The notes below the pieces were generated by a model. It saw nothing but the letters and a program-made list of their open reading frames with translations. It made no database searches and was not told the DNA's origin. From positions 46,026 through 110,025 of IMG/VR virus record IMGVR_UViG_3300032249_000861: a DNA stretch of 64,000 nt; one strand, written 5' to 3'. The position numbers and the translations under genes are program-made. The DNA comes from a virus. Shown one piece after another: positions 1 through 63,029 of the stretch (its first letter is position 1; the number at the start of each line of letters is the position of its first letter).

Positions 1-320
1 GGTTTTGGAGCAAAAGGAGCTACTGTACTTCCCAAGCCAAGAGATTTTGAAGTTCCTCAAGGTTTTGATATAACTCAACAGGGTTCTGATAGAAGACAAG
101 TACTAATTCCCAGCCAAGGTAGTACAGCATTTGTTGCAGATAAAACAGAAGACCAGACAGCAAAATATAGACAAGCTGGATATGATGTTAAGAACATAGA
201 ACGAACCGGTGGTATTAGTGGCACAATGGTTAGAGATTTAATTATAGCTGGAGATATGGCTAAACTTCAATCAGTATTGTCTCCTGGCGTATATGATCTT
301 GTCTCGAATAACATAGGAAG
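1..320 (+). other. C-terminal part of a HIGH-class nucleotidyltransferase-like domain (NadM/NadD/CoaD-like) within the giant protein
   Basis: ERTGGISGTMVRDLIIAGD...LQSVLSPGVYDLV resembles the 'ISGT/ISST-x-I/VR...G...LVP..V' tail of NMNAT/PPAT enzymes. The HIGH motif would lie upstream, outside the window. Confidence 0.5.
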
Positions 321-3300
321 AATACAAAATAGAGCTAGTGTTTTACCATCTCTTATAGAACAAGCTCAAAAAGAAGCACAAGCTGAAATGGGTCAGGTGG
401 ATCAACAGATAGAAGCTCTTGGAATCAAGAGAATAGATTCTAAAAAGTTGGAGAGTGACCCAGAATATGCAGCTAAAGTAGAAGTTCTTAAAGAGTTAAG
501 AGCTAAAAAACAAAAGATCAAATCAGCTGCGGGATTCACCCCATATAAATTATTAGATGCTTTAGCCGAAAAAGATCCGCAAAATTATGCATTGGACTTC
601 TCCACATCATCTAACCTGGGTAATGTTCCAGACATGAGGGTCATGGGACAAAACTCACAAGCTTCAATACCAGCTGGTAGAGTTGCTCAATTAGCTCAAG
701 AAAAAAATAAAAGTATTCAAGACGTTATACTAGAACAGCTAGGCGGATTGGGTGGTCCTGCTGGAGTTAAAAAAATACTTGGCATAGGTAGTGGAGATAG
801 AACATTAAGCTCATTATTACAAGCAGGAAATATTAAGGGAGGTAAAGGTCTAGACGAAGCAGCAGACTATGTTAACAGAGCTTTAGCCGCTAGGGGTATA
901 AGAGATGCTGCAGAAGCCAAAAGATTAGAGGAGTATCAAGCTAAGGCTCTTCATTTTGGTATTGCTGGTTTATTGCCAATGGATTACTCAAAAGAATTCG
1001 AATGGGATATTGGCGGTACCGATGTTTACGCTACTGCCAGAGGTTTTGGTAGTACGTATTTGGAAGAAGCAAAACAAATGCAGAAGGAGTCATCAGAACT
1101 AGCTCAAAGATTTGCAGAAAATGTGCAAAATAAAAATATCTTTGGTGGTGGTGAAAAATTGGCTTTTGATTTTGACAAAACATTAGTTGAGGATGCAGAT
1201 ATTCTTGATGCTAAGGGCAAGCCAGATATTGCAAAATATTCAAATAGAGAGGCTGTACAAGAAGCTCTCAAAAGTGCAAGACCAACCAGACTAGCAACTA
1301 AATTAAAATCACTCATAGAGCAAGATCCCCCATTTATTAAGAAAACCAGAATACTAACAGCTAGGCCACAAAGCACAGCAGACCTTCTTGCACAATCATT
1401 ACAAAGCTTTGGTCTTCCCTATGCCGAAACAGATATTACTGGAGTTAGTGGTGGCGTTAGTAGCAATATTCCTGCATTAAAAGCTGCTAATTTACAGAAA
1501 GAAGAGAAACTTATTGATGATAGTTTAGATAATATTATGGCTGTTCGTAAAGCTGGTAAAAAAGGATTTCAATATACTGAACCCAAATCCACAACATCAG
1601 AACTAGACGAAAAAATGGGTCAGGGTAATATCGAGGGTGCTATAATAGAAAAAGCTTTGGCTGTTTTGGGTGCTCCAGTAAGGCCGGATGCTAAACAAAA
1701 TAGAGCCATAGACTATCCAGACGGTTTAGGTAGTGCATCTCAATTCTTTCCTGGTATTGATCCTGGTATTCCAACAGAAGTTAAAAGAACAATTGACGGT
1801 AGTAGTTTAGAGAAAGTTAGAGAAGAGATTGGAAGATACATAACAGGAGGAGCCCAAGCTGTTAAATTAGCTAGAGGTGGAGCCGTTCAAAGCTTTATGG
1901 CCGGTGGAGCAGCAACCAAAACCAGAAAAACAAAAGAGCCTTTCGGAACTGGTGAAACAGAATTTCCAACAAGAATATCAAAAAAATATGCCGAAGAACA
2001 AAAAACTGCTGATGAATTTGCTAAATCTAAATTAGCATGGGATAAGTATCCTAAAGACGAAAGAATAATGGTTGACGATACAAAAGTGCAAGAAGCTTAT
2101 CAGCAACCATTCGATAGAGAAAGATTTGCTTCATCATTCAAAGAAAAAATTAGTCGCGACTCACTATTCCAAAGAATGTCAGATTTTGCTAAGTTTGTAG
2201 GACTTCCAGAAGAAGACCTATCAGTAGCATTACCCCTACAATTAGATTTCGGCGCTAGCAAAAGAGGCGGTGGTCTAGGCATGTTCGCTGCTGCTCAATT
2301 TGAAAAAGGAGCAACCGGAATTAGGCCATATGAAGGCTATGATTTATCTAAATTTGGATATGGAGAAAAACAAAAACAAGAAGCTTATGGATTAGAGAAG
2401 CTTATAACAGCAAAAGAAAAAGAAATAGCAAAGATTAGAAAAACACCAACTGAAACTTATGATGATGGTAGTTTCTCTTTTGATAGTGAAGCATTCCAGA
2501 AAACCAGTATTGAGTTAGATAGCCTTAAAAATAGATTATTTAAACTAAAAGATTTAAAACGTGACGCAGAAAAAGCGGCACTGTCTGAGCAAAATACTAC
2601 TTCATCAGCTGCCGGTCGAGGAACTATCAGCTTTGCTTCTTCTATGGGTTACTCTAGCGATACCAAGAACAGCACCCTATACCACGAAATGACTCATCAG
2701 CTATTTCAAGGACTAAGAACAAAATCAGCAGGGAGTTTTGATAAATATCGAGATAGAGTATCGTCATTATTTTCTGGAGATAATGATGATTTAGCAGACG
2801 CTTTTGACTCCTTAACGGCTGGGGGCGGATATTCTAGTGCTGATGTTGTATATGGTAGAAGCTATAAGTCAAATAACTTAAGTCAAATACTTTCGAGCTA
2901 TTATCGTCAGAATCTTGATTTTTCTAGAAGTGCTGCTACTATTCCCCAAGATACGACAAAAAATCTTGCTAGTTTAAGTACCCAAAGCACAGCCGCCAAA
3001 AGAGCCAGAGAGTATAGACCAATAAATCCTAGAGTTAACGAAGCTTTACTTCAAGCTGGCGATAAGTTTGGAATGACTCAAGAGAAGATTGATAGAATGG
3101 AAGATAATGGTAAAGAAGAGTTCTTAACAACCTTAATGGAAAAAGCCCCTCAGCTTGATCAAAATTTACAAGGAATTTTAGACTCTACTTTAACAGAACT
3201 ATTGAGTGGAGCTGGAATTCAGAGACAAAAATATGCAGCAGGAAGAAAAGTAGATTACGAATCTGGTGTTGGAGTATCACCATTCGGAGGTTCGATATCA

Positions 3301-6300
3301 AAAAGATTAAGCGAGTCAGTTTATAATCTGCAAAAGGGTACCGGACTAAGTGATCCAGAATTCAATGAGATCAAAAAGACAGCAGATACATACGGATATA
3401 ATGAAGAAGAATTTAAAGAATATTTAGCAAAAAGAATACAAGAGAAAAAGAATAAACAGGGACTAAGAGCCAGTCCATCAGCCTTGGCACAGCAGTTGAT
3501 GCAACAAAAAACAGTATCAACACCCAAACAGCTAGCATTAGCAGAAACACTAAAGGGTGAGCCAGATGCTGGTTATAGACCCATACCAACAGCAGCCGAA
3601 AGAATAGCTTCAGATCGAATGGCTGTTCAGAATGCCACAAGAAGATTTGCTAGTGGAGGCACTGTCTCGGCTTTAGTTAGTAACGGCGAAGCTTATGTTC
3701 CGCCAAAAATAGCCAAGAGAATTGGTTATGGTAATCTTAATCGTATGAATCAAGCTGATCGTAACGGGATGAGCAAGTTCTCTAGCGGTGGTATTAGTGT
3801 GTTTAAAGGTCCTGGGACTGGCACTAGTGACAGTATTCCTGCTAATTTACCAGTTGGTAGTTTTATTATTAGAGAAAAGGCTACGAAGGCTTTAGGTCTT
3901 AATAAGGGAGGTGCTGTACCAGCACAAAGATTTGCTACTGGGGGTAGCGTAACAAGCATGATTATGGAATGGTTGTCATCAGACATGACTGCTGGGACTA
4001 AGCCTAAAATGCCTCAAAGACCTGATATTGTTAGTAGGGCTACTGTTACAGCTTCTTCTGATACAACAAAAGAGTTGGATAATCTAGTTAAATCTCTTAA
4101 TGCTGTCGGGTTTAGTGCAAAAGAATCTGCAGACATATTGAATAGGGGCGGGCAGGTTAGTTATAAAACTATAGAAAAAGCTTTGGTTAAAGATATTGAG
4201 AGATTAAAAAAATCTACAGCAGGTATAGATCAAATTACTCAAGCAGAAACAACTTTAGCAAGAATTCGTAATCAGACAAAAAAAGATGTTGGTAGTAAAC
4301 AAAAAATGGAGGAAGCTTTCAGAGGATCAGGAAGATCATCCGGCTCTGTGCAGCAAGAAATTTATTCTACAGCCATGTCTATGGGCGAACAGAATATAGA
4401 AGCAAAAGAAGCTGCGAGAAGAAAGAAAATACCACAAATAGAAAAAAGAGAAAGAAAAAAGCTTATAGAAAGTAAGCGAGAAGATTTTATTGAGAAAGAA
4501 TATAAAAATCAAGTAGCTAAAGAACAAAAAACTAAAGGTAGAAAATTAACAAGTACAGAAAAAGATAAAGTTAGATCTGATGCAGAGCTTAAGGGAAATA
4601 CAAAAACTTTTAAATTAACTACAGAAGAAAAAACCAATGTTAAAGCAACAGCACAAGCCAAAACCACATTATCTGCTGAAGAAAGAACAAAAGAATACAA
4701 TAAAGCAGCGTTAAGGGCGACAACCTCGGTTACAGGAGCAAGTAAATCAGAATTAGCAGCTAAAAACGTTAAAGGTTCTGATATCTTAAGATATGCTCAA
4801 GAGAGTATGAGAGATCGTAAAACCCTAGCCGAAATGGATAAACAGTTTGTGGCTATGGCAATGGATGAGTATAAAAATCGTGGCACTGTAAATGGTATAG
4901 TTGTTAAGAGTGCGGCTGAAGCTAAAAAAGCTGCTGAAGAGGAGATCTCAAAGAGAAGAGAAGCTATTAATGCGAGAGCTTCACAGAATGGAGAAAAAGG
5001 AGTCGGTGCTGCTGGGTTGAGAGACTATAGAAATAGTCCCATACTTAATCAGATAAAGGGATTTATAAAATCTCCTGGAAGAGTAATGGGTGGAGTGTCT
5101 GTTGCTGCTGGGCTAGCTGCTGGCTCTTCCGATATGATTGCTAAAAATATGTATGATATGAGTACAACAGAGGGCCAAGGGAAAGCTGCTAAAACTTCTG
5201 CAGCTATTCAGTCTTCTGGTACTATTCTTAGTACTGGATTAGCAGCAGCATCACAGATGGCAACCATACCAGTTATTGGTCCTTATGTTGCTGCTCTTAC
5301 TGCTGTGGGAACAGCTGCTGCAGCTGCTGCTGATTATTTTTATGATTTTACAGGAGCTCAAAAGGCTGCTACTGTAGAATTCGAAAGATCAGTAAGGGCC
5401 AAAGAAATTGGAATTGCTATGGATGGTTTAGATAGAGCATTCCAAAATTTTGAAAAAGACATGGGTAATATTGATTTACAAAACGCTTTAGAAAAATCCC
5501 TCGGCGGCGCATCCTCTTTGCAAATTAAAGATAATATGGCAGAAAGAGACAATGCTAAAGCAGAGTTCTCTTTAAAGAATAGAAGTTGGTCGGATATTTT
5601 TAGTGGAAACTTCAAAGGTTCCGCCAAGATGGACGCTCTTCAGCAAGGTGCTATGGATAGTGAAATGTCTCAAAAGATAACACCAATAGCAGATAAGGCT
5701 ATGTCGTTATATGAGAAACAAATTAGTAGCGGTAAGAGTATACAAGATATTGTTAATAATGTTCGTACAGGAAATAAAGAGGCTGGAGCTGCTGGTTTTG
5801 CTGTTGCTGCAAGTGTAAATCCCAAGTTGTGGTCAGAGTTAGAAGCCAAGATAGCAAAATCAGGAGATACTTCAGAGCAGAATAGAGAAAAAATTCAAAA
5901 AGAAATAGCTGCTAGAGAATTACTGACCAATGTTCAATTACAGTCAATTGAAAGAATGGCTAAACTAAATAAAGAGATGGATGCTGCTGATAGAGCTGGT
6001 CGCAGATTGGCTGAAACTTTTGAACACATAGGTGAAACTATTGATCAGTCAATTCAGAGAATGCAAAGAGAGTCGCAAATTCGTCAAGCTCAAGCTAACG
6101 ACAGAGTAGAAGCTAGAAGAGGAAATGCTGGTTTTGATGAGAGGGCTGTTAATAACAGAAATGTTGGAGTACTAACCAGTCCAAAAGCATATCAAAATGA
6201 TCCTGGGCGCATAGAAGAAGCTATCAGAGCAGGAACTACCGGCATGTCCCCGGAACTTGCTCAAAAAATGGCTGGTGGAGCTAGATTAGAAGCTACTTTA

Positions 6301-9300
6301 CCTAATGTGATGAGAAATGCAGTATCTTCAGAGCTTAAAACAAATGCCAATTTAGATCTTGCTGAAGCAGCAGATGCCGCCAGGAAAAAAGGAACAGAAG
6401 CTATTCAAAGGTCTGGATTATCAGAAGCTGACCAAAAAGTTGCTATAGATAAATTAAACACAAAATTAAATAGTGAACAAGAAAAAGCACAAAAAGAAGG
6501 AGGAGATAGTCCAAGACAGAAAGTTGACTTTTTTATTGATTCTGTTAGTGAGCTTGGTCCAGAAATAGCTAATATATTTGGTAATGCTGGTAAGAGACTA
6601 GATGATATTATTCAAGCCAGACAAGGAATCTATGATACTTTTGCAAAGAATCTTCAAGCCGCCTCAGAAGCTGCTAAAAAAGCACGAGAATTTTTCAGTA
6701 AAGCAAGAGACATAAGATATAATGCTGGAATGGATTTGAGAGAAGCTCAAACGGGCGTAGGAGAAAGTTATGCTGAAGCAAAAGCTAAATCTGATAGTAG
6801 TATTGCACGATTAACTGGCGGGGTTACCGATCCTCAAGCTATTGGTAGAAATATTGATGCTTTAACGGCTCGTCGTGATCAGCAAATGAAAGCTAGAGAT
6901 GCCGCAGCATCTGATCCAAATCTAACTCCAAAACAACAAGAAGATGCGGCCATAAAATTTGCTAAAGATATTCAAGCTACTAATAATGCTTTAAACGATA
7001 ATAGAGAAGCACTAGATAAGCTAGCTAATAGTGCTGAAGTAGCACAAAAAGCTTTAGACGAAGTTAAGAACATTAGAGGACTACAACAAGATAGAGAGAA
7101 CTTTGTTAATCAATTACTAACAAATACTCCAGCAGAAGCAGACAAACTTAATCAATCATTTATTAGACTTCAGCGTAACTTGTCTGGTGGGTTAAATAAT
7201 GCTTCTAATCAAAGAGATGCCCGAAATGCTTTTAATGATACGTTACGTCGTACAGGTAATCTAAGAGAAGCTACTCGCGCTGGAAATACTGTATTAGCAG
7301 ATCAAAGAAAACAAACCCTACAGCTGATGCAAGATCCTGGATTTAGGGGTATGATGACCCTTAATATGAAAAATCAGGGAATGAATGATCAACAGATAGA
7401 TAAGAAATTCAGAGATCAAGAGAGTATGCTGATGCAGCAGATGGCTGTTGAAAGTGGAATGATCAATAATCCAATGGTCAGACAAGCACTAGCCGCAAAA
7501 CAAGATCCTAATGCTGATCCTGCCATGAAACGTGCTGCTGAACAATTTTTACAGTCAACGGGCTTACAGGCAAAAGCTACTGAGGAGCAAGGTCGATTAG
7601 AATTAGCTAATGTGCAAAGCTTATTAATAACATCTACTGATGATTTAAGAACGTCTATAGATGCTTTAACAACAAGTATTAATGCTTCGTTAGGTCCAGA
7701 CGGAGAAAGAGTTCCTGGCGCTGTTGGGCCTATGGTGCCTGTTCCAGCCGGGGCCAGAGGAGCAGGTCCTATTGGACGTCCTATTAGACGAGCTACTGGT
7801 GGTAAAGTCAATACTCAATATGCTAGTACTGGTAAATTAATAGACTTTTCTCCCAAGGGTACCGACACTGTTCCCGCCATGTTAACCCCCGGTGAATTTG
7901 TTGTTAATGCCAAAGCAACGGCAGACAATTACCCACTGCTAAAAGCTATTAATAATGGAACTAATCTAGTTGGTAATACGGCTATGATGAGTAAGGGTGG
8001 AGTTGTTTATTTAGATAATGGCGGATTAATAGATGAGTTTAGAAGAATAGATTCTAATAGTTCCAACTTTTTAGAAGTTGGTGAAATAGATCTTAAAATG
8101 ATGCAATTATTAGATACAGATAAAGATAATAAAGTTTCATTTAGAGAATATTCTGCAAGAGCAAAGAGCGGTGGTAGTGGATCTTCAAGATCTGGTCAAA
8201 GATCACCAGTTAATAGTAGTTTTAAAGCCGACAATCTAAGCTTTAAAGCGTATTCTAATGCTAGAGAAGAAAAATACTCAAAAAGATACGAAGGCACCAG
8301 AGATCGATTCCCTAGAGAAACAGAGAAATTTTCTAGTGGGGGCTTAGTTACTCCATACTATTTACAGGACGGAACAGAAAAACCACTATCTAAAAGACCC
8401 TTTATGGTAAAGATGGAGAAACCAGAAGACCCTCTTGAGGCTGCTGAACGCCGTCGTGCCCGTGCTCTTAAAGCGTCCCATCCAGAGATTACTAGAGTCA
8501 GACAACCATCTTTGGTTCCTGGGGATCCTAGAGCATTAAGACACAAAGAAAGCTTCTATAGACTAGATGTTAATAGTGATGGTGTTCTAGATGCAAAAGA
8601 AGGCAGACCACATCCTGAACTTGATAGAGATTTAGATCGAAGAATAACACTAGAAGAATGGGACGGAATCGATCCTGGTGAATTTGACCCAGATGATTCA
8701 AGCCATGTTCTGCGAGACAGTAAAGGCAATCCTTTAACTCCTGGACTTATGGGAAGCCCATTTGAAAAAAGGCATCGTTCTTTAATGGCTTCTGTTGCTA
8801 TGGATGAAGAAAAACTTGCTAAGGGTGAACCTTTAGTGGACTCTAATGGAAAACCCATAGACTTAGCAAGTAAAAGGAAAGAACTAGCCATATTTAATGC
8901 TCAGTCTGGTCTATATAATACTAGTCAATCACTTATAGCAAGACAAAAAAATATTGACGATAGTCTAACCAAACGATTAACTGGTGGCGGTTCTCTTCGT
9001 AATCCTGATAGTTCTTATGCTGTTACGAGAGAATTTAATAAGATTCGTGATCGGAGATCTGCTTTTGAAGAAGAAAGAAGAGGTCAAAGAGCCAAAGATG
9101 AGAACGCAACAGATGAAGAGATATTTGATCGCACAGTAGAAGCCTATGGGCAGGGAGATTCAGATTATTGGCGTAGTATGGGCGTTACTGAAGCACCAAA
9201 CTCTTATGATGAATCTAATACTCTGAATTTTATTCGCTCAGGTGATCGTCTTGCAAGCAGAGGAGATCCTTATGGAGACAAGGCCAGAGCATATATAGAC

Positions 9301-12300: not shown

Positions 12301-15300
12301 AAACCGATATCAACAGAAGAACAGTCTCCGGTTGGAGAAACCACAATTCCTCAGCCTAATAAAGATGCTGCTGATACCGTAACTGCCGGTACAAAACCAG
12401 TCGATGCTGCAACAGTAGCAGCAAAAAACCAGACAGTAGTCAAGGCAGCAGAACAAGAAAATACATCTTCGCTACAAACATCAGCGATACCGCAGCCCAA
12501 ACCCTATAATCCTACAGATTATCCTATTATGGATAGTATTATGAGAGGAGGAAAGAACGGCCATTATGGTCCGATGGGTACTACTAATATAACAGGTAAA
12601 CAAAATATTCATGGAATAAGCGGATGGAAAACTAGACTCATACCAAAAGACGACGCGTCTGCAGCAAAAATTAAAGAATTTTTAGATACTCATCCAGATA
12701 TAGGGTCATATAAGTTAGCATTAAATGAGGGACCAGTACCAGTATTTAGTGTCTATTTCAAAAAAGGCACCAAAGATGAAGCACTATCTTTTGCACAAGC
12801 TAGTGAAAAAGGACTAAAAGATAGTTTAGATCCTCGTTTATATCAGGGTGCTGATACTCTGCTAGAAGGGACAAATATTTCCGCAAGATTTGATGCTAGA
12901 GATCTAAAGAATAAATCAGCATCATCAATTATAGATAGACAACTAGAGAATTCTCCTTTTAGTAGAGGATTTTTAAAAGCTGAAGAACTGAATCTACAAA
13001 TACTTCCATCAAATACGGCACCTGGGTCAACGGCTAGCAGAGCAATGCCAAACATTACTGCTGGCACCAGAGGAGTACCAGATACCGGGTATGTTGATTG
13101 GTTAAAAACAAAAAAGTTTTTGGCGAAAGATCCTAAAAAGATAGCTAGTCTAGATGCAGAGATACAAAGAGCTACTAACGTAGCAGATGATTGGCTAAAA
13201 GAAAATATGTCCGACATCTACAGCGCATCTGCTGAACGAACAGCTAGAGAATCAACAGGCCCACAACAACAAGCAGTAGTTGAAACAGCAACAAGAGACG
13301 CTACGAGCAGGCCAACCAAATCCGGTTTTGTTCGAGATAAATCATTACCGATAAACGAAGTAGACGATCTAGCTTCTGCCGGATTTGGAGTTATAAGCCC
13401 AGACCAAGAAGTAGAAAGTGTTATAAGGGGTGCAAGAGAAAATTTTCTTGGCTCTTTAACTAAACCAGCAGCATTATTACAGCCAGAAACATACCAAAAA
13501 TATGCAGACCAACTATTAGAACTAGAAAAATCAGGAAAAATAAAAATAACCAAAGGCGCTTCATTTGGTACTAGTGGCCAACCAAGTATATTTGTAGGAA
13601 AACCAGAAAATGTAGATATTCTTGCAAAAGCTTTTGAATCTGAAACAGCAAGGACACGAGAAACGAGAGGTTCAACATCAAATGAATTTAAAGAAACGGT
13701 AGGAAAAGCATTAGGATATAGTAAAGATAGTATAGCCCTACATATATTAGAAAAAGATTGGGATAAAGCAGGATTAGATATAGACACTATTCAAGATAGA
13801 TTACAAGTTAGTCGTGGTGCTGCTGCTCGGTATATGGTATCAGAAATTAATAAAGCTAAAGAACAAGCATCAGTTGAGCAAGGAGTAAAAGAATCAATAA
13901 ACCCGCCCATCAAAGATCCTATTACTGGAGATGAATTTGAATTAGGACCTGGAGATGATTTTCAATTAGGAGGTCTTGGAGAAGATCCGTTGGCACCGGC
14001 TCCTATAATAAAACCAGAAAATGTATTACCTGAAGCAAGAGCAGAATCAGAAGCTCGTAGAGCCGAAACAGCAACCTCACGAACTAAATCTAGTATTGTT
14101 GATGAAGATGAGTTTGTTTTAGGAGACATGGAAGATGATAGTACTGTCGTAGCTGTTGAGCCTGACGATGGTTCGAACTTTTTTGGAGAAGCATTCGCTG
14201 CCGCCGCACAAGAAGCCAGAGCCATAGAAGCAACAAGGGCTCAGATTGAAACCAACGATAAGTTTGTTGTTGACCAGCCTGATATGATGACAGCTTCAGA
14301 GCTTGACCCAATAACAAGAGCTTCTAGTAGGAGGGTTTGGGGATCTGATAAGGCTTTTGAAAATATGCCCAAACCCAAAATTTCTAGAGAAAAAGTCAAA
14401 GCACTAGACACTGGCGAGCCTGACGAGATGACAGCTTCAGAGCTTACTCCTCTACAGAGGGCCGTTATTAATAAGTCATTCGGACTTGATTCTGATAAAG
14501 GTTTCGAATTGCGAGAACAACTTATAGCTCAAAAAAGAGAAGCAGATATACTTCCAGAAGACTTTTTTCCAAACGGTTCATCAAGAACAGAAACTCCATT
14601 ATCTTCAGCTAGAACAGAAGCAGAAGCTAAGAATCCTGGTACCGTATTTGAAGGACAGTTAGAAGCAGCATTAACCGATGCTTCTTCTCCAGAAGCTTTA
14701 AAAGCTTCTGCAGAAGCTCAACAAAGATTAGCAGCACAAAAATTAGCAGCAAAATCTCCAGAACAAATATCTGTAGAAAAAACATATGGTCCTTTATATA
14801 GAGAAGCTAAAAAAGCTAATGATACAGCGGAGATGGCCAGAATACGATTAGAAGCTAATGCAGAATTTAAGAAACGCTCTCAAGAAGCTTCTACAAGATC
14901 TGAAGATAAAAAGAACAATTTCCTTCCTGTTATGGGTAGGGTCTTAAAGATAGCCGCCCCAATCGGATCAGCTATTGGTTATGGACTAGGATCGTTATTA
15001 AGTGGTTCTATGGGCAGAAAAAAAGAAGAACCTCAAGATTTAGCTTCTAGGTTAGAAAATGCTTCTGATCTACAAGAAGTTTTTGATCTTTTAAAACTAG
15101 CAGAAAAAGACAAGATAGGAAACCCGACTAATCCTTTAAGAGAAATAGGCGGATCATCCCCACTTATTGCTAAATTACAAAAACTAGCTCCAGAAATATA
15201 TGGTAAAAAAGGTAGTGACTATTTTAGCTCTCAAGACTTAGCAGCTATGCCGGAAGACGCATATAATGAGAATTTTCTAGAAAGATTAAAAGATAATGCA

Positions 15301-18300
15301 ACATTCGAGAAGATGAAAAGAGAACAAAAGGTAGCTGAACCTGCTCGCTTAAAGAGTGATGAGGCTGCACGGGCTACAACAAGAGATCTTATAACGCAAT
15401 GGTCTCAAGACTTTGCTATGGCGGGTAATGATGTCCGAACTCCTCCAGGTTCTGATCCTAAAAAAGCTAGAAATCCGTTAAAAGCCATGTCACGAGAAAT
15501 GGCAGAAAGAGCACAAGAAAGAAGAAGTGGATTCCCCACAGACGATCAAGGAAACGATCTACAGATAGGCACTATGATTCCCGCCCCGATATCGGTTTTA
15601 GATCGTACAAAAAATGATGCTGCAGCGATGAGAGAAATTGACGAAAAAGATAATAATGCTGCTCCGATGCTGGAAGTTAAGAAACCAGTAAAGAAATCTC
15701 TTGGGGGTTTAATTTATGCGTCGAAAGGAACCTTAGTAAACTACCAACCTCGTGGAACTGACACAGTACCAGCAATGTTAACTCCGGGCGAGTTTGTTGT
15801 TAATGCCAGAGCAACAGCAGATAACTACCCATTACTAAAAGCTATTAATAGCGGAACTAACGTTGATACTACTGCTAATATGAGTAAGGGCGGTGTGGTT
15901 TATGCTCAAGAAGGAGCATTAGTACCTAGCTTCGGAATGCATATTCCATCTTTAGATCCAGACAAAAATACTAAATTAACCCTATTACCAGAAAGCTCTT
16001 TAGATCAAGCAAATACAAAAGAAGCTTTTCGAGAATATGGAAACGCTCGACCTTCCTATCAATCAAGACCACAACTACCAAAGCCAACTGTTCAATCAGG
16101 ATCTTTTAAAGAAGGAGTTCATGATAGAAATTCTGTTATAAAAGATAGTGAATATTCTAGAAGTTTAAAGAGAATGGGTATTCCACACGTATCACAGAGT
16201 GGTGGATCTAAAACCTATTTGGATCAAAATGGCAGAGAAATTTCAGCAAATGAATTTAAACTTTTACCAGAAACGTCTTTTAATCATCCAGAATATGCAG
16301 TCATGCGTAGCAGAGCAGCTTTTGCTGCTGGAGCTGCTAAGTCTGTTGTTCCTCAAATGGGGGCTACGTCTGGGGCTATAGCAGGAGCAGCTGCCGGAGC
16401 CGTATTAGGACCTCCCGGAGTAATTGCCGGAGGCTTGATTGGAGGTTTGACTGGTGGTATAATGGGATCGGCATTACAAGAAACAGCATTAGATATAGCA
16501 AATCCAGAGGCTAACGCTATAGCTAATCAACTAATGGATCAAAATCCCGTATCAGCAATGGCAGGATCAGCAGCAGGAGACATTGCAACAGGAGGATTAC
16601 TATCATTAGCCTTGCCTTCTATACCAACACCAACAAGGGCTGGAGATTCAATGGTTGGTCCCGGAGGACTAACACCAAAACAAATAAAACATGCTGAAAA
16701 AGGATTAAATAGACCCATATCAGAAGCGATTACTCCGTTTACAGGAATGAAAGGATTTGGAGGTCGTTATGTTGACGGTCCAATAAGTGTTGATCAGTTA
16801 GTATATAAATCCAGAGACAACTTGGCTGAGAGTATTCATTACTCTGGGGCAGATCCCAAAACATTTGATTCATTAACAACAAGATTAACAGAACCTGTTC
16901 CTGGAGCTCTTGGTGATTATTACCAGGGACTAAGCAGGATATCTCCTAAAGCTCCTCCAGAACATATTATTGGAACAATAGCTCATGAGGCTGGCCATCA
17001 TTATCAAACAATGAAGGACCCTACTGGAAGATTCGTAAAAACTTGGATGTCAGATAATAGAGATCAAGCAAGTGACTGGATTTTAAAAAGAACATCCTCT
17101 CCTCAATATCTTGAAACTGCAACTCCAAGAAACCAGGTGAATTATGGAGTTAATGATATGCTGAGTGGGGATTTTTATAAACAGAGACAAATGGAACAAT
17201 TAAGAAAAGAGTTTGGAGAGGATGGTTTTAAGACTTTATTAGAAGACTCGTTAGCACATACTCTAGGGGCTGGTAAAAAAGGCATAGCTGGAGATGTAAA
17301 TTCAGCACTAAGATTTGAGTCTCAAAACTATATTCGCGGCAGAACTGGTGGCAGATATGGCGAAGCAGGACTAGCATTTGGAGGCGAAGACCTGTCTCGC
17401 ATAGATCCCGATATAATGGCAAAGGTTGGAGTAAGAGCTCCACAAACCTTAACAGGTCACGACAGAGTTTTAGACGCTATGACAAGATATGGTCAGGATA
17501 AGGGTTTTGCATTTCCTAATTTTGTAGATAATGCAGAAGTGTCTGGTAGACAAGAATTTCTTACGTCTATGTTCCAGGATTTAGGAGGAGCAGATAAAGA
17601 AGCCAGAGGATTATCTCAAGGATTAGTCAAATTTATCGAAACTAAGGGTGGAGAAGGCGTAAAAATGACTCCACCGCCACTTCCTCCATCTCCACCACCA
17701 CTTCCTGTTAATAGATACGCAAATGGCGGAATGGTCAATATGTCTGAAGGTAACAAGATTCCATCCGAAGTATGGGCAATAGGTACAAAATATACAAATG
17801 TTATGTCTCCTGAAGATTTTGAAAAACGCAAAGTCATTAGACCAAAATTATCTGATGATAGTACCTATGATACCCCCAAGGTTTTTAAAGACTATCACGA
17901 AGCACATAAAAAACCTATTAGTATTGATCCAGCATTACTAGATAAACAATCTTCTTTCTCTAAGTATTTACAGTCTGGCGGTCGAAGAATGTCTAATAAT
18001 GTTGAAATTGCACCAAAATTAACCACAGATGAAGTATTACAATATTTTCAAAATATAAAAGCAAAAGAACGTCGTGAAGGTTCTCCTCCTGCTGGTGGTA
18101 GGGTTCAATATGCAACTGGTGGAATAGTTTATGCAAATAATGGTGCCCTCATAGCTGCACAACCAATGGGAACTGATACTGTTCCAGCGATGCTAACTCC
18201 AGGAGAATTTGTTGTCAAAAAAGAACAAGCTCAAAAACACGCTCCAATATTACATGCTATAAATAGTGGAGCTTATAGTAGGGGTGGTATTGTTAATTAT

Positions 18301-18942
18301 TTGGCTAATGGTGGTATTGTTAATCCAAACTATTTATCTTATGGTGGCTATGCCAAAATGGGAGAGCAAGATCGTCGAGATCCATTAAAAGAGATGAGTC
18401 AGAGAGTAGCAGAATATAACGCCGCTGCAGCACCTCAACCAGTACCACTTCCTGCTCCAGCCCCAGTTCAAGTTCCATCTCCAGCACCAGTTGGTGGTGT
18501 ATCTAATAATATTGGTATAGATTTAGCTGGTTTGCAATCAATAGTGGCTAATTTCCAGAAAACGGTCAATGATTTTGGAGCATCGGTGCCTTCGCTTTCA
18601 CAAGTGGCAGAGAGTATGAATACTGGTTTTAGTTCTTTCGTAACAGGAGGATCTCAAATAGGAGAGATGTTAAATAGTGCAACAGCTGGTTTACAACAAG
18701 TTAATCTTCCTGATAGGATTAGACTAGAAGGTTCAGTAAGTAATAATGTAAATATTAACGGTGCTGAAGCAGCCGCTAGGGTTATGGATACTATGGGCGG
18801 TGCTATTCAACAGGGCGCAAATGAACAAATAGGCAGATTCGCCGGAGCTATTAATAGAGGTATTGGTAATTTGGGTGAAGGAGCATTAGGTCCAGATACT
18901 GGTCAAATTATGGGTCAAATAGGTGGTTCAAATTATGCTTAA
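1..18942 (+). CDS. Giant tape-measure-like multidomain (polyvalent) virion protein, 5'-truncated, at least 6313 aa
   Basis: Frame 1 is open from base 1 (GFGAKGATVLPKPRD...) into the 226 ATG, so the gene begins upstream of the window. It has the TMP-typical motifs FSSGG...GPGTGTSDSIPA (3778-3845) and three GTDTVPAMLTPGEFVV boxes, a long Ala/Lys/Glu/Gln helical region (~3960-7700) and hydrophobic Gly/Ala segments, and lies upstream of tail genes. Confidence 0.8.
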   Translation, partial: GFGAKGATVLPKPRDFEVPQGFDITQQGSDRRQVLIPSQGSTAFVADKTEDQTAKYRQAGYDVKNIERTGGISGTMVRDLIIAGDMAKLQSVLSPGVYDLVSNNIGRIQNRASVLPSLIEQAQKEAQAEMGQVDQQIEALGIKRIDSKKLESDPEYAAKVEVLKELRAKKQKIKSAAGFTPYKLLDALAEKDPQNYALDFSTSSNLGNVPDMRVMGQNSQASIPAGRVAQLAQEKNKSIQDVILEQLGGLGGPAGVKKILGIGSGDRTLSSLLQAGNIKGGKGLDEAADYVNRALAARGIRDAAEAKRLEEYQAKALHFGIAGLLPMDYSKEFEWDIGGTDVYATARGFGSTYLEEAKQMQKESSELAQRFAENVQNKNIFGGGEKLAFDFDKTLVEDADILDAKGKPDIAKYSNREAVQEALKSARPTRLATKLKSLIEQDPPFIKKTRILTARPQSTADLLAQSLQSFGLPYAETDITGVSGGVSSNIPALKAANLQKEEKLIDDSLDNIMAVRKAGKKGFQYTEPKSTTSELDEKMGQGNIEGAIIEKALAVLGAPVRPDAKQNRAIDYPDGLGSASQFFPGIDPGIPTEVKRTIDGSSLEKVREEIGRYITGGAQAVKLARGGAVQSFMAGGAATKTRKTKEPFGTGETEFPTRISKKYAEEQKTADEFAKSKLAWDKYPKDERIMVDDTKVQEAYQQPFDRERFASSFKEKISRDSLFQRMSDFAKFVGLPEEDLSVALPLQLDFGASKRGGGLGMFAAAQFEKGATGIRPYEGYDLSKFGYGEKQKQEAYGLEKLITAKEKEIAKIRKTPTETYDDGSFSFDSEAFQKTSIELDSLKNRLFKLKDLKRDAEKAALSEQNTTSSAAGRGTISFASSMGYSSDTKNSTLYHEMTHQLFQGLRTKSAGSFDKYRDRVSSLFSGDNDDLADAFDSLTAGGGYSSADVVYGRSYKSNNLSQILSSYYRQNLDFSRSAATIPQDTTKNLASLSTQSTAAKRAREYRPINPRVNEALLQAGDKFGMTQEKIDRMEDNGKEEFLTTLMEKAPQLDQNLQGILDSTLTELLSGAGIQRQKYAAGRKVDYESGVGVSPFGGSISKRLSESVYNLQKGTGLSDPEFNEIKKTADTYGYNEEEFKEYLAKRIQEKKNKQGLRASPSALAQQLMQQKTVSTPKQLALAETLKGEPDAGYRPIPTAAERIASDRMAVQNATRRFASGGTVSALVSNGEAYVPPKIAKRIGYGNLNRMNQADRNGMSKFSSGGISVFKGPGTGTSDSIPANLPVGSFIIREKATKALGLNKGGAVPAQRFATGGSVTSMIMEWLSSDMTAGTKPKMPQRPDIVSRATVTASSDTTKELDNLVKSLNAVGFSAKESADILNRGGQVSYKTIEKALVKDIERLKKSTAGIDQITQAETTLARIRNQTKKDVGSKQKMEEAFRGSGRSSGSVQQEIYSTAMSMGEQNIEAKEAARRKKIPQIEKRERKKLIESKREDFIEKEYKNQVAKEQKTKGRKLTSTEKDKVRSDAELKGNTKTFKLTTEEKTNVKATAQAKTTLSAEERTKEYNKAALRATTSVTGASKSELAAKNVKGSDILRYAQESMRDRKTLAEMDKQFVAMAMDEYKNRGTVNGIVVKSAAEAKKAAEEEISKRREAINARASQNGEKGVGAAGLRDYRNSPILNQIKGFIKSPGRVMGGVSVAAGLAAGSSDMIAKNMYDMSTTEGQGKAAKTSAAIQSSGTILSTGLAAASQMATIPVIGPYVAALTAVGTAAAAAADYFYDFTGAQKAATVEFERSVRAKEIGIAMDGLDRAFQNFEKDMGNIDLQNALEKSLGGASSLQIKDNMAERDNAKAEFSLKNRSWSDIFSGNFKGSAKMDALQQGAMDSEMSQKITPIADKAMSLYEKQISSGKSIQDIVNNVRTGNKEAGAAGFAVAASVNPKLWSELEAKIAKSGDTSEQNREKIQKEIAARELLTNVQLQSIERMAKLNKEMDAADRAGRRLAETFEHIGETIDQSIQRMQRESQIRQAQANDRVEARRGNAGFDERAVNNRNVGVLTSPKAYQNDPGRIEEAIRAGTTGMSPELAQKMAGGARLEATLPNVMRNAVSSELKTNANLDLAEAADAARKKGTEAIQRSGLSEADQKVAIDKLNTKLNSEQEKAQKEGGDSPRQKVDFFIDSVSELGPEIANIFGNAGKRLDDIIQARQGIYDTFAKNLQAASEAAKKAREFFSKARDIRYNAGMDLREAQTGVGESYAEAKAKSDSSIARLTGGVTDPQAIGRNIDALTARRDQQMKARDAAASDPNLTPKQQEDAAIKFAKDIQATNNALNDNREALDKLANSAEVAQKALDEVKNIRGLQQDRENFVNQLLTNTPAEADKLNQSFIRLQRNLSGGLNNASNQRDARNAFNDTLRRTGNLREATRAGNTVLADQRKQTLQLMQDPGFRGMMTLNMKNQGMNDQQIDKKFRDQESMLMQQMAVESGMINNPMVRQALAAKQDPNADPAMKRAAEQFLQSTGLQAKATEEQGRLELANVQSLLITSTDDLRTSIDALTTSINASLGPDGERVPGAVGPMVPVPAGARGAGPIGRPIRRATGGKVNTQYASTGKLIDFSPKGTDTVPAMLTPGEFVVNAKATADNYPLLKAINNGTNLVGNTAMMSKGGVVYLDNGGLIDEFRRIDSNSSNFLEVGEIDLKMMQLLDTDKDNKVSFREYSARAKSGGSGSSRSGQRSPVNSSFKADNLSFKAYSNAREEKYSKRYEGTRDRFPRETEKFSSGGLVTPYYLQDGTEKPLSKRPFMVKMEKPEDPLEAAERRRARALKASHPEITRVRQPSLVPGDPRALRHKESFYRLDVNSDGVLDAKEGRPHPELDRDLDRRITLEEWDGIDPGEFDPDDSSHVLRDSKGNPLTPGLMGSPFEKRHRSLMASVAMDEEKLAKGEPLVDSNGKPIDLASKRKELAIFNAQSGLYNTSQSLIARQKNIDDSLTKRLTGGGSLRNPDSSYAVTREFNKIRDRRSAFEEERRGQRAKDENATDEEIFDRTVEAYGQGDSDYWRSMGVTEAPNSYDESNTLNFIRSGDRLASRGDPYGDKARAYIDGYIASQGARQQQDRVDIGMGRPTISPDKAVVGTQGPVDDLNYLIDRNEVGRAVKYKAEQAKTEEENKQRDDAQVKQAEKQASLEKRDKELGIDTSGINRDIYESGGGFSNQPGSGRKVTVEEQTQRKRERAIADRFSFTDKTGKYSTAGTIDKVDFEKGTVKIAKMDPKTGEPITRTVPVFAGGETEEAIKASGRDPRRFKVGEKEEQVYTTVPLDKLSDKSRDKVRSYGLEKEADKAKTGENFTVGTSFEDYKGKIFRVDEKSEKVIVQKEDGKLVSVPMGIIDPETKNIALDQAKTATTVTDLTQKQMDADIGNIDFTSSLPEPQVPLIEDFTDRANEVRQETMNNAALEQTKMDQLPVMSEPVPTSGTIDPLTGKVVGNNVSMDLNPDGTRTPEQLNILNQQATRDADRRNSNARYEELRARSKAESSYDRSWFGENWPKEWGGVSKPEKRLTRKELEELGAMESERGVPALSRLGANTRVEQTRRNAGLDEAQIESLSQQKTEQFKAELEKKNDAEGGVAVGLAAQRAVVPLLAGATAVAAAPALVPAGVIGAGLTIAGGVGFSLGANKLQDVALEGTDFDKRQKELAEKRPGATAVGSLLPGLLTGNPLTGATTLRQALATRAASGATEAALGAGIRGATSGGDFGTVQDVGMDFISGAILPSPNFGGKGSKNYNIPEGPAKPKTEAVALKELAKTVKAEQRAITEENVLDGAEILATKRKQEEVRRAAQEKQRVRDEAEAVKESGREKAVFDVFTIGGRLSDDNIASALKSAKEKTVTGTKLLTGKVTGKPRGDLIEQNPTLASRLGVSTPGLDAVKNGQNITAKDLVAKLKDEGFSEEYAKKVSRERTLKMVSDLATERSKRKDESIQQVASEYKDAVTGVEDPNKRAKIKAKFQTRLQKELSSIVSDTNDRAEAFDSGMTVQELKKQRAAEAQAKDKAESDKLIQEFDSTLGSSKPITIDNPPIGEPLDLGVDPLAPITSARDNAATTAASTKPISTEEQSPVGETTIPQPNKDAADTVTAGTKPVDAATVAAKNQTVVKAAEQENTSSLQTSAIPQPKPYNPTDYPIMDSIMRGGKNGHYGPMGTTNITGKQNIHGISGWKTRLIPKDDASAAKIKEFLDTHPDIGSYKLALNEGPVPVFSVYFKKGTKDEALSFAQASEKGLKDSLDPRLYQGADTLLEGTNISARFDARDLKNKSASSIIDRQLENSPFSRGFLKAEELNLQILPSNTAPGSTASRAMPNITAGTRGVPDTGYVDWLKTKKFLAKDPKKIASLDAEIQRATNVADDWLKENMSDIYSASAERTARESTGPQQQAVVETATRDATSRPTKSGFVRDKSLPINEVDDLASAGFGVISPDQEVESVIRGARENFLGSLTKPAALLQPETYQKYADQLLELEKSGKIKITKGASFGTSGQPSIFVGKPENVDILAKAFESETARTRETRGSTSNEFKETVGKALGYSKDSIALHILEKDWDKAGLDIDTIQDRLQVSRGAAARYMVSEINKAKEQASVEQGVKESINPPIKDPITGDEFELGPGDDFQLGGLGEDPLAPAPIIKPENVLPEARAESEARRAETATSRTKSSIVDEDEFVLGDMEDDSTVVAVEPDDGSNFFGEAFAAAAQEARAIEATRAQIETNDKFVVDQPDMMTASELDPITRASSRRVWGSDKAFENMPKPKISREKVKALDTGEPDEMTASELTPLQRAVINKSFGLDSDKGFELREQLIAQKREADILPEDFFPNGSSRTETPLSSARTEAEAKNPGTVFEGQLEAALTDASSPEALKASAEAQQRLAAQKLAAKSPEQISVEKTYGPLYREAKKANDTAEMARIRLEANAEFKKRSQEASTRSEDKKNNFLPVMGRVLKIAAPIGSAIGYGLGSLLSGSMGRKKEEPQDLASRLENASDLQEVFDLLKLAEKDKIGNPTNPLREIGGSSPLIAKLQKLAPEIYGKKGSDYFSSQDLAAMPEDAYNENFLERLKDNATFEKMKREQKVAEPARLKSDEAARATTRDLITQWSQDFAMAGNDVRTPPGSDPKKARNPLKAMSREMAERAQERRSGFPTDDQGNDLQIGTMIPAPISVLDRTKNDAAAMREIDEKDNNAAPMLEVKKPVKKSLGGLIYASKGTLVNYQPRGTDTVPAMLTPGEFVVNARATADNYPLLKAINSGTNVDTTANMSKGGVVYAQEGALVPSFGMHIPSLDPDKNTKLTLLPESSLDQANTKEAFREYGNARPSYQSRPQLPKPTVQSGSFKEGVHDRNSVIKDSEYSRSLKRMGIPHVSQSGGSKTYLDQNGREISANEFKLLPETSFNHPEYAVMRSRAAFAAGAAKSVVPQMGATSGAIAGAAAGAVLGPPGVIAGGLIGGLTGGIMGSALQETALDIANPEANAIANQLMDQNPVSAMAGSAAGDIATGGLLSLALPSIPTPTRAGDSMVGPGGLTPKQIKHAEKGLNRPISEAITPFTGMKGFGGRYVDGPISVDQLVYKSRDNLAESIHYSGADPKTFDSLTTRLTEPVPGALGDYYQGLSRISPKAPPEHIIGTIAHEAGHHYQTMKDPTGRFVKTWMSDNRDQASDWILKRTSSPQYLETATPRNQVNYGVNDMLSGDFYKQRQMEQLRKEFGEDGFKTLLEDSLAHTLGAGKKGIAGDVNSALRFESQNYIRGRTGGRYGEAGLAFGGEDLSRIDPDIMAKVGVRAPQTLTGHDRVLDAMTRYGQDKGFAFPNFVDNAEVSGRQEFLTSMFQDLGGADKEARGLSQGLVKFIETKGGEGVKMTPPPLPPSPPPLPVNRYANGGMVNMSEGNKIPSEVWAIGTKYTNVMSPEDFEKRKVIRPKLSDDSTYDTPKVFKDYHEAHKKPISIDPALLDKQSSFSKYLQSGGRRMSNNVEIAPKLTTDEVLQYFQNIKAKERREGSPPAGGRVQYATGGIVYANNGALIAAQPMGTDTVPAMLTPGEFVVKKEQAQKHAPILHAINSGAYSRGGIVNYLANGGIVNPNYLSYGGYAKMGEQDRRDPLKEMSQRVAEYNAAAAPQPVPLPAPAPVQVPSPAPVGGVSNNIGIDLAGLQSIVANFQKTVNDFGASVPSLSQVAESMNTGFSSFVTGGSQIGEMLNSATAGLQQVNLPDRIRLEGSVSNNVNINGAEAAARVMDTMGGAIQQGANEQIGRFAGAINRGIGNLGEGALGPDTGQIMGQIGGSNYA
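1153..1580 (+). other. HAD-superfamily phosphatase domain within the giant protein
   Basis: All four HAD motifs in order: I AFDFDKTL (~1162-1185), II ILTARP (1351), III K in LKAAN (~1480), IV LIDDSLDNI (1510). Confidence 0.75.
2640..3140 (+). other. Zincin-like metallopeptidase domain 1 (HExxH) within the giant protein
   Basis: TLYHEMTHQLF (HEMTH 2683-2697), with distal KEEFLTT (~3112-3132) as candidate third Zn ligand. Confidence 0.6.
7819..8010 (+). repeat. GTDTVPAMLTPGEFVV box, copy 1 (TMP-associated motif)
   Basis: PKGTDTVPAMLTPGEFVVNAKATADNYPLLKAINNGTN...MSKGGVVY. Near-identical in protein sequence to the copy at 15715-15903. Confidence 0.9.
8035..8670 (+). other. Two EF-hand pairs within the giant protein
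   Basis: FRRIDSNSSNFLEVGE / LLDTDKDNKVSFREY (~8035-8150) and FYRLDVNSDGVLDAKE / LDRDLDRRITLEEW (~8554-8665) match DxD/NxDGxxxxxE loops. Confidence 0.7.
9700..10185 (+). other. Two SHD1 (SLA1 homology domain 1)-like domains within the giant protein
   Basis: RFSFTDKTGKYSTAGTIDKVDFEKGTVKIAK...[insert]...VPLDKLSDKSRDKV and YKGKIFRVDEKSEKVIVQKEDGKLVSVPMGIIDPET resemble the bacterial SHD1 pattern RTWTDxTGKFxxEA...VxLxKxDGxxxxVPLxKLSxxDQxYV. Confidence 0.6.
15715..15903 (+). repeat. GTDTVPAMLTPGEFVV box, copy 2
   Basis: PRGTDTVPAMLTPGEFVVNARATADNYPLLKAINSGTN...MSKGGVVY. Confidence 0.9.
16900..17580 (+). other. Zincin-like metallopeptidase domain 2 (HExxH) within the giant protein
   Basis: GTIAHEAGHHYQ (HEAGH 16984-16998), with distal RQEFLTS (~17548-17568) paralleling domain 1. 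Confidence 0.6.
18109..18330 (+). repeat. GTDTVPAMLTPGEFVV box, copy 3
   Basis: YATGGIVYANNG...PMGTDTVPAMLTPGEFVVKKEQAQKHAPILHAINSG... Confidence 0.9.
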
Positions 18943-55945: not shown

Positions 55946-55949
55946 ATAA

Positions 55950-56747: not shown

Positions 56748-57180
56748 AATTAAATTGCTCCACTGTGGCTATCGGGGGCTTCCAACACATAGAATATAAA
56801 TCATTTAAGACTGGACTGGTTACTATAATATCAAGATTATCTTGTTCATATACGGATCTCCATTGTTCGTACATTCCAGCATTAGTTTGTGTCCAATGAG
56901 TATCCGATGTGAATAATATCCGCCTGCTAATATTTGGAAATTGATTGCTAAGAACAACACTAGGCATGTCAAACAATATTAACTTGCCATTAAAGAATTG
57001 TGACTGCTGAAGATGAAAAATTGGAACATTAAATGTGTTGATTTTTTCTGAATAACTATTGAATACCACATGCTGTTGGTATGGACGGCGCTTAATAAAT
57101 TCTGATACAGTATTTAGGATACTATCATAGGTCTTATTGTTTAAAAGTTTTATTAGAACAAATCCTATATCTTTATTCAT
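56722..57180 (-). CDS. Hypothetical protein, glycosyltransferase-like fragment
   Basis: 152 aa, Rossmann-like beta/alpha pattern (LILFD...ILFTSD...IIVTS), ATGA-coupled within the GT cluster. Confidence 0.4.
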   Translation of the reverse strand: MNKDIGFVLIKLLNNKTYDSILNTVSEFIKRRPYQQHVVFNSYSEKINTFNVPIFHLQQSQFFNGKLILFDMPSVVLSNQFPNISRRILFTSDTHWTQTNAGMYEQWRSVYEQDNLDIIVTSPVLNDLYSMCWKPPIATVEQFNYEELSKYI

Positions 57181-58582: not shown

Positions 58583-58585
58583 CGT

Positions 58586-59877: not shown

Positions 59878-59878
59878 T

Positions 59879-60880: not shown

Positions 60881-60884
60881 TTTA

Positions 60885-62589: not shown

Positions 62590-62616
62590 TTATTGTGTCC
62601 TTACATTATAATATGA

Positions 62617-62988: not shown

Positions 62989-63029
62989 TTATCAAACTCC
63001 TTGTAAAAAAGAAAACACGCAACTACTAC

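Follow-up and report, generated by a model that had tools for sequence, protein, structure and literature searches.

A giant phage tail tape measure protein with a conserved scaffold and two variable bays of predicted enzyme cassettes

The 64,000-nucleotide stretch of viral DNA analysed here (the window) covers bases 46026-110025 of the single 110,025-bp virus contig G000 (IMG/VR record IMGVR_UViG_3300032249_000861) and begins inside the gene for a giant tail tape measure protein (TMP). Our preferred reading, held with moderate confidence, is that this protein is the TMP of a large uncultured phage, in which a conserved scaffold is combined with two cargo bays whose enzymes are injected ahead of the DNA. 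The phage is probably siphovirus-like, and entry of the enzyme modules into the host before the genome is the probable course. The idea of a multi-enzyme cargo goes back to an original prediction made from the letters of the window alone, which described unrelated globular modules in one chain. Modelled folds and conserved catalytic motifs bear out such modules, and the cargo idea is supported in silico.

The + strand frame is uninterrupted from window position 1 to 18942 (6,313 codons) and is open at its 5′ end. The single open reading frame (ORF) of at least 6313 aa that had been noticed is thus real, and it is longer than was visible: the gene starts with an ATG at C1:42243 of the 110,025-bp contig (L003:2243), 3,783 nt 5′ of the window, and the complete protein read from this ATG has 7,574 aa. 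The window holds the 3′ five-sixths of the gene (1..18942, +; 6,313 codons and the stop); residues are numbered below on the full protein (window residue + 1261). An identical 7,574-aa TMP was found on a second contig of 200,684 bp, which rules out an assembly artefact; an assembly chimera or a pseudogene was rejected on this ground and because more than 650 relatives have intact frames. These uninterrupted homologues, together with the absence of any cysteine from 7,574 residues, also exclude chance as the origin of the frame.

Judged from its sequence, the 7,574-aa protein is a true phage tail TMP, as indicated by a Pfam match, a box shared with mycobacteriophage Douge, the names of its relatives and the genes downstream. 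Pfam PF10145 (PhageMin_Tail) matched aa 188-382 with 81.2 bits against a gathering cut-off of 33.2 (E 1.2e-22). Five boxes of the pattern [ST]D[ST][IV]PAxLxPGEFV lie at aa 547, 2537, 3882, 6514 and 7319, the first of them 5′ of the window; they are copies of one ~90-aa unit, the sole internal repeat of the TMP in a masked-chunk self-BLAST. Box 2 (3655..3972, +; aa 2480-2585) is a divergent copy in which GPGTGTSDSIPA sits near aa 2537. The other three boxes in the window read GTDTVPAMLTPGEFVV: box 3 (7759..8040, +), between flanking GG motifs, at aa 3882, box 4 (15676..15933, +) at aa 6514 and box 5 (18070..18324, +) at aa 7319. All four were assigned by motif and self-comparison, with a Douge profile match in addition for box 3 and a match to PHROG 25241 (tape measure) for box 4. 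The box profile (A2) matched the Douge TMP gp16 (8zdo_S) at two internal sites with E 1.1e-7, and many relatives carry the automatic JGI name 'TP901 family phage tail tape measure protein'. The TMP hallmarks listed in the original prediction, namely GPGTGTSDSIPA, the three GTDTVPAMLTPGEFVV boxes and hydrophobic segments, are all present. Hydropathy and composition gave three hydrophobic or glycine-zipper segments (aa 3017-3037, 4893-4931 and 6719-6753).

Beyond the N-terminal domain and the box, the protein resembles little that is catalogued. No match to the TMP gene turned up in a megablast search of 50,697 phage records. When the first 3,000 aa were compared by tblastn, matches were confined to the box and to the N-domain, which is 26-31% identical to TMPs such as those of Rhodococcus and Bacillus SPbeta; a phmmer search of PDB sequences with the whole TMP was uninformative. 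In an AlphaFold2 (AF2) model covering aa 1-975, the second of two, the N-domain is all-helical, with helices spanning aa 19-512; the model has an overall predicted local distance difference test score (pLDDT) of 65, with aa 150-470 confident at pLDDT >90.

The N-terminal 600 aa recovered 221 IMG/VR loci, the best 80 of the 221 at 51-87% identity; the frames are 1,962 aa or longer, some running past the end of the DNA retrieved. Three full-length relatives measure 6,457, 5,886 and 4,357 aa. In a collection of 5.8 billion proteins, at least 652 clusters of 3,255-10,359 aa matched at E <= 1e-10, and the longest family member among the matches listed has 7,872 aa. Megablast and tblastn against phage records found no cultured phage close to this one, and a single metagenome-assembled genome label, 'Sphingobacteriia bacterium', hints at a Bacteroidota host.

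The family consists of a constant scaffold (N-domain, a core of ~1,390 aa and a C-terminal box) and two variable bays. Sharing was scored in 119 relatives picked by N-domain and length alone. Residues 1-590 and ~2500-3940 and the box regions at ~6500 and ~7300 are common to roughly 70-100% of them, and the helix-former-rich core (3973..7767, +), assigned from composition, hydropathy and relatives and including the hydrophobic segment at nt 5266-5328 (aa 3017-3037), is present in 67-100%; it coincides with the helical core that had been placed at nt ~3960-7700. The rest is shared more sparingly: half of the relatives have the P-loop and nucleotidyltransferase (NTase) modules, 29-51% the HAD module, 24% the HExxH module Zn1, 15-26% a staphylococcal nuclease-like (SNase-like) module, 6-15% a PD-(D/E)xK-like module, 4-8% the stretch aa 3950-6450 and 2% the region of the second HExxH module, Zn2. 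In the 113 relatives in which the parts were measured, the core equivalent had a median length of 1,390 aa with an interquartile range of 1,367-1,421, the bay between N-domain and core (bay 1) took up 0-2,735 aa, and the part C-terminal to the core 146-3,782 aa. Total TMP length rose with that of either bay (r 0.74 and 0.80) and showed no correlation with core length (r -0.11); giant TMPs of this family thus differ in size because their two bays vary in length.

These lengths bear on how much of the protein measures the tail. The original prediction held that only part of the TMP is a ruler; this we infer rather than observe, the constant core arguing for it and the P23-45/P74-26 group of phages against it. 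In the alternative, whose chances we put only a little short of even, all 7,574 aa, cargo included, would be extended as a ruler in a tail of more than 1 µm (about 1.1 µm at 0.15 nm per residue), and the enzymes would still be delivered, so that it contradicts only the claim of a partial ruler. Tail tubes polymerise around the TMP, and anything inside the tube takes up length. Thermus phage P23-45 has a TMP of 5,002 aa that includes an RNA polymerase of ~1,500 aa (PMC10770324), and P74-26, a related phage with a homologous TMP, has a tail of nearly 1 µm (PMC10034513). Because cargo and a full-length ruler can coexist in this pair, a tail as long as the whole protein, which had been named as a finding that would speak against cargo, is not a valid refutation. 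Against the extended ruler stands the fixed core (interquartile range as above) beside totals of ~1,960-7,872 aa: the tails of close relatives would differ four-fold. A volume estimate further suggests that cargo in an unfolded or molten state could fit at a higher density than a coiled coil would.

The cargo modules move. A comparison of relatives for swapping between the conserved boxes, as had been suggested, found modules exchanged, permuted, and present or absent over a constant scaffold. Zn1 stands before or after the P-loop and NTase modules, and HAD occurs with or without them, while 225 of 230 occurrences of bay-1 modules lie 5′ of the core. The TMP has about 17-25 GGx[VI] motifs, depending on the strictness of the pattern. 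Homology breakpoints fell within 10 aa of such a motif in 45% of cases, as against 6% for random positions, indicating that GGx[VI] motifs mark cassette junctions. Synonymous divergence (dS) between relative L006 and the TMP gene of G000 (L003:2243 onward, window 1-3300) is a mosaic, with 1.34 in the N-domain, 0.18 in the NTase and 0.3-0.55 in the neighbouring cassettes, which points to a recent exchange of cargo cassettes by recombination among TMP genes that have diverged elsewhere. Homologues of the kinase-NTase-HAD modules number 141 among 1.84 billion representatives, nearly all of them giant proteins or TMPs; these enzyme lineages thus live essentially inside TMPs.

Cysteine is missing from the whole chain (0 of 7,574 residues; P ~1e-38 at the cysteine frequency of the genome) and has been nearly lost family-wide, with 44 cysteines in 519,506 residues and 19 in 634,104 in two overlapping samples; neighbouring tail proteins contain 0.4-3.8%. 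Unfolded storage and threading within a tube would fit a TMP without cysteine. The junctions could also be read as processing sites: in a polyprotein, cleavage at the GG junctions, for which the HExxH modules might be responsible, would release the enzymes to work late in the producer cell, unpackaged. GGx[VI] motifs do stand at cassette junctions, HExxH modules are frequent in the family, and proteolytic trimming of a TMP is known from lambda gpH. We nonetheless consider a polyprotein improbable: many family members lack any HExxH; cysteine avoidance spans cargo and scaffold alike, which fits passage through a tube rather than life in the cytoplasm; a working ruler needs the scaffold parts on either side of the cargo to remain joined; and the P23-45 RNA polymerase remains in the full-length virion TMP (PMC10770324).

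Bay 1 (aa 590-2480) is, in the models, a string of independently folding cassettes between GGx[VI] junctions. An AF2 model of aa 975-1885, built with an alignment of this segment to 39 segments from related loci, had a mean pLDDT of 85. The NTase module (aa 1196-1377), whose C-terminal half with ISxTxxR (aa 1333-1339) opens the window (1..348, +), was modelled at pLDDT ~90 and matched the NMNAT structure 1f9a with Z 13.6 and a root-mean-square deviation (rmsd) of 2.6 over 153 of 164 aa; NadM, NadD and PPAT (4nah, Z 12.6) matched as well, with Foldseek probability 1.0 and TMt 0.6. The motifs P-x-T-x-G-H (1208-1213; T1210, G1212, H1213) and I-S-x-T-x-x-R (1333-1339) are kept in at least 90% of 17 sequences. 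Pfam PF16581 (HIGH_NTase1_ass) scored 16.2-16.4 bits, below its gathering cut-off of 26.7, and the module was therefore filed under the HIGH-motif superfamily only.

The NTase is followed by a helical and small beta-sheet linker (355..1137, +; aa 1380-1640; AF2, dN/dS 0.14), which belongs to the same cassette, and by the HAD phosphatase module (1144..1587, +; aa 1643-1790). Structure matches of the HAD module were led by the T4 Pnkp 3′-phosphatase (5uj0, Z 11.8; 1ltq, Z 11.0) and Pnkp1 (4xrp, Z 10.7); further HAD entries matched at Z 8.6-9.8, and Foldseek pointed to AphA. At least 90% of 24 sequences keep the motifs D-x-D-x-T (1651-1655), K1755 and DD (1767-1768), together with the A-R-P context (1715-1717). 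The nucleotidyltransferase tail and the HAD that had been proposed thus fold as named (AF2, Foldseek probability 1.0, Z 13.6 and 11.8), and the viral models sharing these folds include many 'cytidyltransferase-like' and PNKP-phosphatase proteins. The P-loop domain that precedes the NTase has a Walker A motif, G1052-x-A-G-x-G-K1058, kept in at least 90% of homologues and placed in the model after strand 72-78 and before helix 84-89. The fold-search lists for the aa 975-1885 model were filled by NTase and HAD and do not cover this domain; it has language-model leads below 0.9, AAA_33 and PRK at 0.81-0.83 (ESM Atlas). From the modelled folds, the kinase-NTase-HAD trio could serve Pnkp-like healing of RNA or DNA ends, or nucleotide salvage of the NadR/NMNAT kind.

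The HAD module gives way to a ~90-aa element that ends in a GGx[VI] junction (1588..1872, +; aa 1791-1885). It is found in ~69% of relatives, including those without HAD, and has the lowest dN/dS in the TMP, 0.04; its conserved residues are D1832, P1834, G1836-L1837, K1856-R1857-T1858 and Y1874. The PD-(D/E)xK nuclease suspected inside the window falls here (aa ~1832-1856) and was not confirmed, the candidate forming a strand and a helix only in the AF2 model. Zn1 (1915..3267, +; aa 1900-2350) is a candidate metallopeptidase with HEMTH at nt 2683-2697. Across 48 homologues its HExxH (aa 2156) reaches at least 95% conservation, and in alignment A4 it is invariant; no zincin family emerged from a profile against PDB or from Pfam scans of homologues, in which SprT and M78 appeared at noise level only, and a weak language-model lead pointed to LPD23 (score 0.77, ESM Atlas). 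Of the two HExxH zincins proposed for the TMP, the motifs (aa 2156 and 6923) are there; the zincin assignment found no backing in the Zn1 profile and Pfam searches.

Two further modules lie in the part of bay 1 encoded 5′ of the window. The SNase-like module (aa 818-964) is a beta-barrel with helices (module pLDDT 62-92) that aligned with 1sta_A at Z 9.8 and rmsd 4.7 over 121 of 137 aa, the top match for the whole aa 1-975 model. All its top Foldseek matches were SNase (probability 1.0, E 8e-3). A D-G-D..R-L-x-x-x-D-A-x-E pattern is kept in 27 homologues; judged by the pattern, it may correspond to D21/R35/D40/E43 of SNase. The PD-(D/E)xK-like module (aa 596-790) keeps a D..ExK motif in 10 homologues and folds poorly (pLDDT 27-77).

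Bay 2 (aa 3940-7290) holds, by motif and hydropathy, putative Ca-binding loops, membrane-inserting segments and the second HExxH module. Its lineage-specific stretch of ~2,540 aa (8041..15675, +), common to only 4-8% of relatives, holds four EF-hand-like loops of the canonical 12-residue type (nt 8050-8658, +; aa 3945, 3966, 4117 and 4136). The loop pattern occurs five times in the TMP against 0.9 in shuffles, four of the matches being clustered, so that the four EF-hands proposed stand as a cluster of loops; as a Pfam assignment they do not, EF-hand_5 scoring 21.6 bits against a gathering cut-off of 25.9. Precomputed EF-hand matches are on record for six of the relatives and homologous fragments listed. 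The stretch also contains a hydrophobic Gly/Ala segment (nt 10894-11010, +; hydropathy) and is otherwise charged in composition; a search with bay 2 matched solely three fragments of giant TMPs. Towards the C-terminus lie a glycine-zipper-like hydrophobic segment (16372..16476, +; aa 6719-6753; hydropathy) and Zn2 (16495..17697, +), defined by motif only, with HEAGH at nt 16984-16998 (aa 6923); Zn2 is shared with only three close homologues, and a search for shorter homologues found none. The Gly/Ala/Asn-rich C-terminal tail and stop (18325..18942, +), delimited by composition, are kept in relatives. This tail is presumed to be the end that plugs the tail tip, since the C-terminus of the Douge TMP sits in the baseplate hub (PMC13033339). 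Two other assignments were not confirmed: the two SHD1 domains (PF03983) had no match in the TMP at E <= 0.1 and are recorded only for relatives P0205 and P0220, and the possible OspF/HopA1-like domain had no match in Pfam or PDB sequence searches.

Several results weigh against injected enzyme cargo. Pfam, NCBIfam and PDB sequence searches put no cargo module in a curated family above threshold, and Pfam on small free-standing homologues gave only a marginal Citrate_ly_lig/HIGH_NTase match in P0134. The PD-like module is poorly folded in the AF2 model, and bay 2, with dN/dS up to 0.51, is less constrained and may be largely spacer. The upstream tail-module context is unrecognisable to PHROGs. 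Folded domains of 20-50 kDa are too big for a tube lumen of ~4 nm, so that unfolded storage must be assumed. Injection and delivery to the cytoplasm are, for their part, pure inference.

The same lack of a curated model at threshold for any module, together with the poor conservation of bay 2, would suit a spacer in which enzyme-like modules, decayed or exapted, serve as filler: they would lengthen the ruler and catalyse nothing. We consider this very unlikely. Homologues at 30-90% identity retain the catalytic signatures in at least 90-95% of cases, and the globular models are confident. Computed against L006 and L004, dN/dS was 0.19 for the P-loop, 0.10 for the NTase, 0.19 for HAD, 0.04 for the ~90-aa element and 0.15 for Zn1, compared with 0.06 for the N-domain and 0.25 for the core; the modules (0.04-0.19) thus lie below the helical core. 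In bay 2 the values were 0.16-0.51.

TMPs are expelled at infection and form a channel through the envelope. In the cargo reading that we prefer, the TMP would be stored unfolded or extended inside the tail tube and, upon adsorption, be expelled C-terminus first, its hydrophobic segments building the envelope channel. Bay 2 would exit first and act in the envelope, with its Ca-binding loops, glycine-zipper segments and Zn2. The head-proximal bay-1 enzymes would follow, refolding on the cytoplasmic side just ahead of or with the DNA; their targets would be host nucleic acids or nucleotides, at a time when expression of the phage genes has not yet begun. Among the activities, the candidates are DNA or RNA cleavage and either RNA-end healing or salvage of NAD/CoA-type nucleotides. 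The order of exit is proposed by analogy, because the P23-45 TMP carries an N-terminal RNA polymerase and the Douge C-terminus lies in the tail tip.

A wider form of this proposal can be put forward tentatively, although we think it less likely than not. An abundant uncultured phage lineage would have made its TMP into a cysteine-free programmable delivery string, the phage counterpart of a secretion-system effector chain, with cassettes recombining between GG junctions; the head-proximal bay would be destined for the cytoplasm and the tip-proximal bay for the envelope, both injected before the genome; and the enzymes would cut host nucleic acids and would restore RNA ends or NAD/CoA-type nucleotides hit by host defences.

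The closest known system is P23-45 gp96, a 5,002-aa TMP with an active N-terminal virion RNA polymerase, packaged in the full-length protein. This enzyme has been proposed to work at the TMP pore while the DNA is entering, and the TMP also has transmembrane and metallopeptidase regions (PMC10770324). Both are giant TMPs with cytoplasm-acting enzymes, in our case predicted ones, in the head-proximal part. Whereas P23-45 has one enzyme, the TMP described here has several unrelated cassettes after the PhageMin_Tail domain, shuffled over hundreds of relatives and known from sequence alone. To our knowledge, the P23-45 RNA polymerase is the sole documented cytoplasmic enzyme fused to a TMP.

Polyvalent proteins combine many disparate enzyme domains, with frequent HExxH metallopeptidases and nucleotide or nucleic-acid targets, and are proposed to enter together with the DNA at the very onset of infection; their carriers are MuF, DarB-like and similar head or ejection proteins (Iyer et al. 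2017, PMC5512222). The TMP resembles them in joining at least two unrelated enzymatic domains in one chain, and its gene is itself a virion gene beside tail-fibre-like genes. It differs in that no polyvalent-protein Pfam domain was detected in it, the LPD23 lead of Zn1 being the only trace, and PMC5512222 does not mention tape measure proteins at all.

The HAD module resembles T4 Pnkp and Pnkp1 in matching their 3′-phosphatase domains (Z 10.7-11.8) and in sharing a cassette with a P-loop domain. Unlike in Pnkp, an NMNAT/PPAT-like NTase stands between P-loop and HAD, and there is no sequence-level match to Pnkp; NadR-like NAD salvage fits the cassette equally well. TMPs with cell-wall hydrolase motifs are familiar from T5 pb2, mycobacteriophage TM4 and SPbeta YomI, the last annotated as a transglycosylase in its tblastn match record. 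An HExxH and a transmembrane segment near the C-terminus recall the layout of T5 pb2 and of P23-45. Hydrolase-type TMPs act on peptidoglycan outside the cytoplasm, whereas the bay-1 modules are predicted P-loop, adenylyltransferase-like and nuclease-like domains.

Douge gp16 (PDB 8zdo) is a trimeric TMP of 1,699 aa whose resolved C-terminal 42 residues plug the baseplate hub (PMC13033339). It shares the box of ~70-90 aa, with the consensus GxxD[ST]hPAxLxxGEFV...AhNxG...GG, and has two internal copies in a region not resolved in the 8zdo structure. We know of no enzyme cassettes in Douge gp16. Sle1-type effectors of actinobacterial contractile injection systems (CIS) use a TMP-derived reconfigurable platform with diverse ejected domains (PMC13277306). 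Unlike the TMP here, they are bacterial CIS cargo with a single functional domain, and neither a phage ruler nor a multi-enzyme chain. In our literature searches, neither this giant-TMP family nor any multi-enzyme TMP with shuffled cassettes was found to have been described.

TMPs are usually regarded as rulers and channel formers. In hundreds of metagenomic phages they reach 2,000-7,900 aa, and exchangeable enzyme cassettes can make up over half of the chain; at 7,574 aa, the protein described here is among the largest phage proteins, and record tail lengths are possible. Should the cargo count as ruler, the tails would be the longest known, at more than 1 µm. Should the cassettes be delivered, the tail lumen would be a general protein-injection route for takeover or counter-defence before expression, the storage and threading of folded enzymes through a 4-nm tube would become directly testable, and the family would be a natural library whose cassettes and junction rules could be used to engineer phage protein delivery.

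Among 20 ORFs neighbouring the TMP gene, PHROGs identified no capsid, portal, tube or chaperone protein. Just 5′ of the TMP start (L003:939-2131), at the position expected of chaperones, are two ORFs of 95 and 302 aa that overlap at an ATGA; they had no PHROG match and noise-level Pfam matches only. In none of five related records, of which two are complete, was the tail sheath family PF04984 found; this is compatible with a non-contractile tail without proving it. CheckV rated the 110-kb contig 73% complete; relatives rated complete measure 223-244 kb, one with direct terminal repeats, and the genome size of the clade is uncertain (150-240 kb).

On the 3′ side of the TMP gene, there are eleven consecutive large genes (window 18963-54464, +), several of which encode FGE-sulfatase (lectin-like), fn3, DUF285 or PhoD_N/Pur_ac_phosph_N Ig-like domains, and genes downstream also have 'minor tail protein' PHROG matches; from their domains they look like a very large receptor-binding and tail-fibre arsenal. 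Two giants among them (2,137 and 2,667 aa) have no PHROG match. The structural module is followed by nine minus-strand genes (window 55199-63998, -) of lower GC (0.29-0.34) and opposite AT skew.

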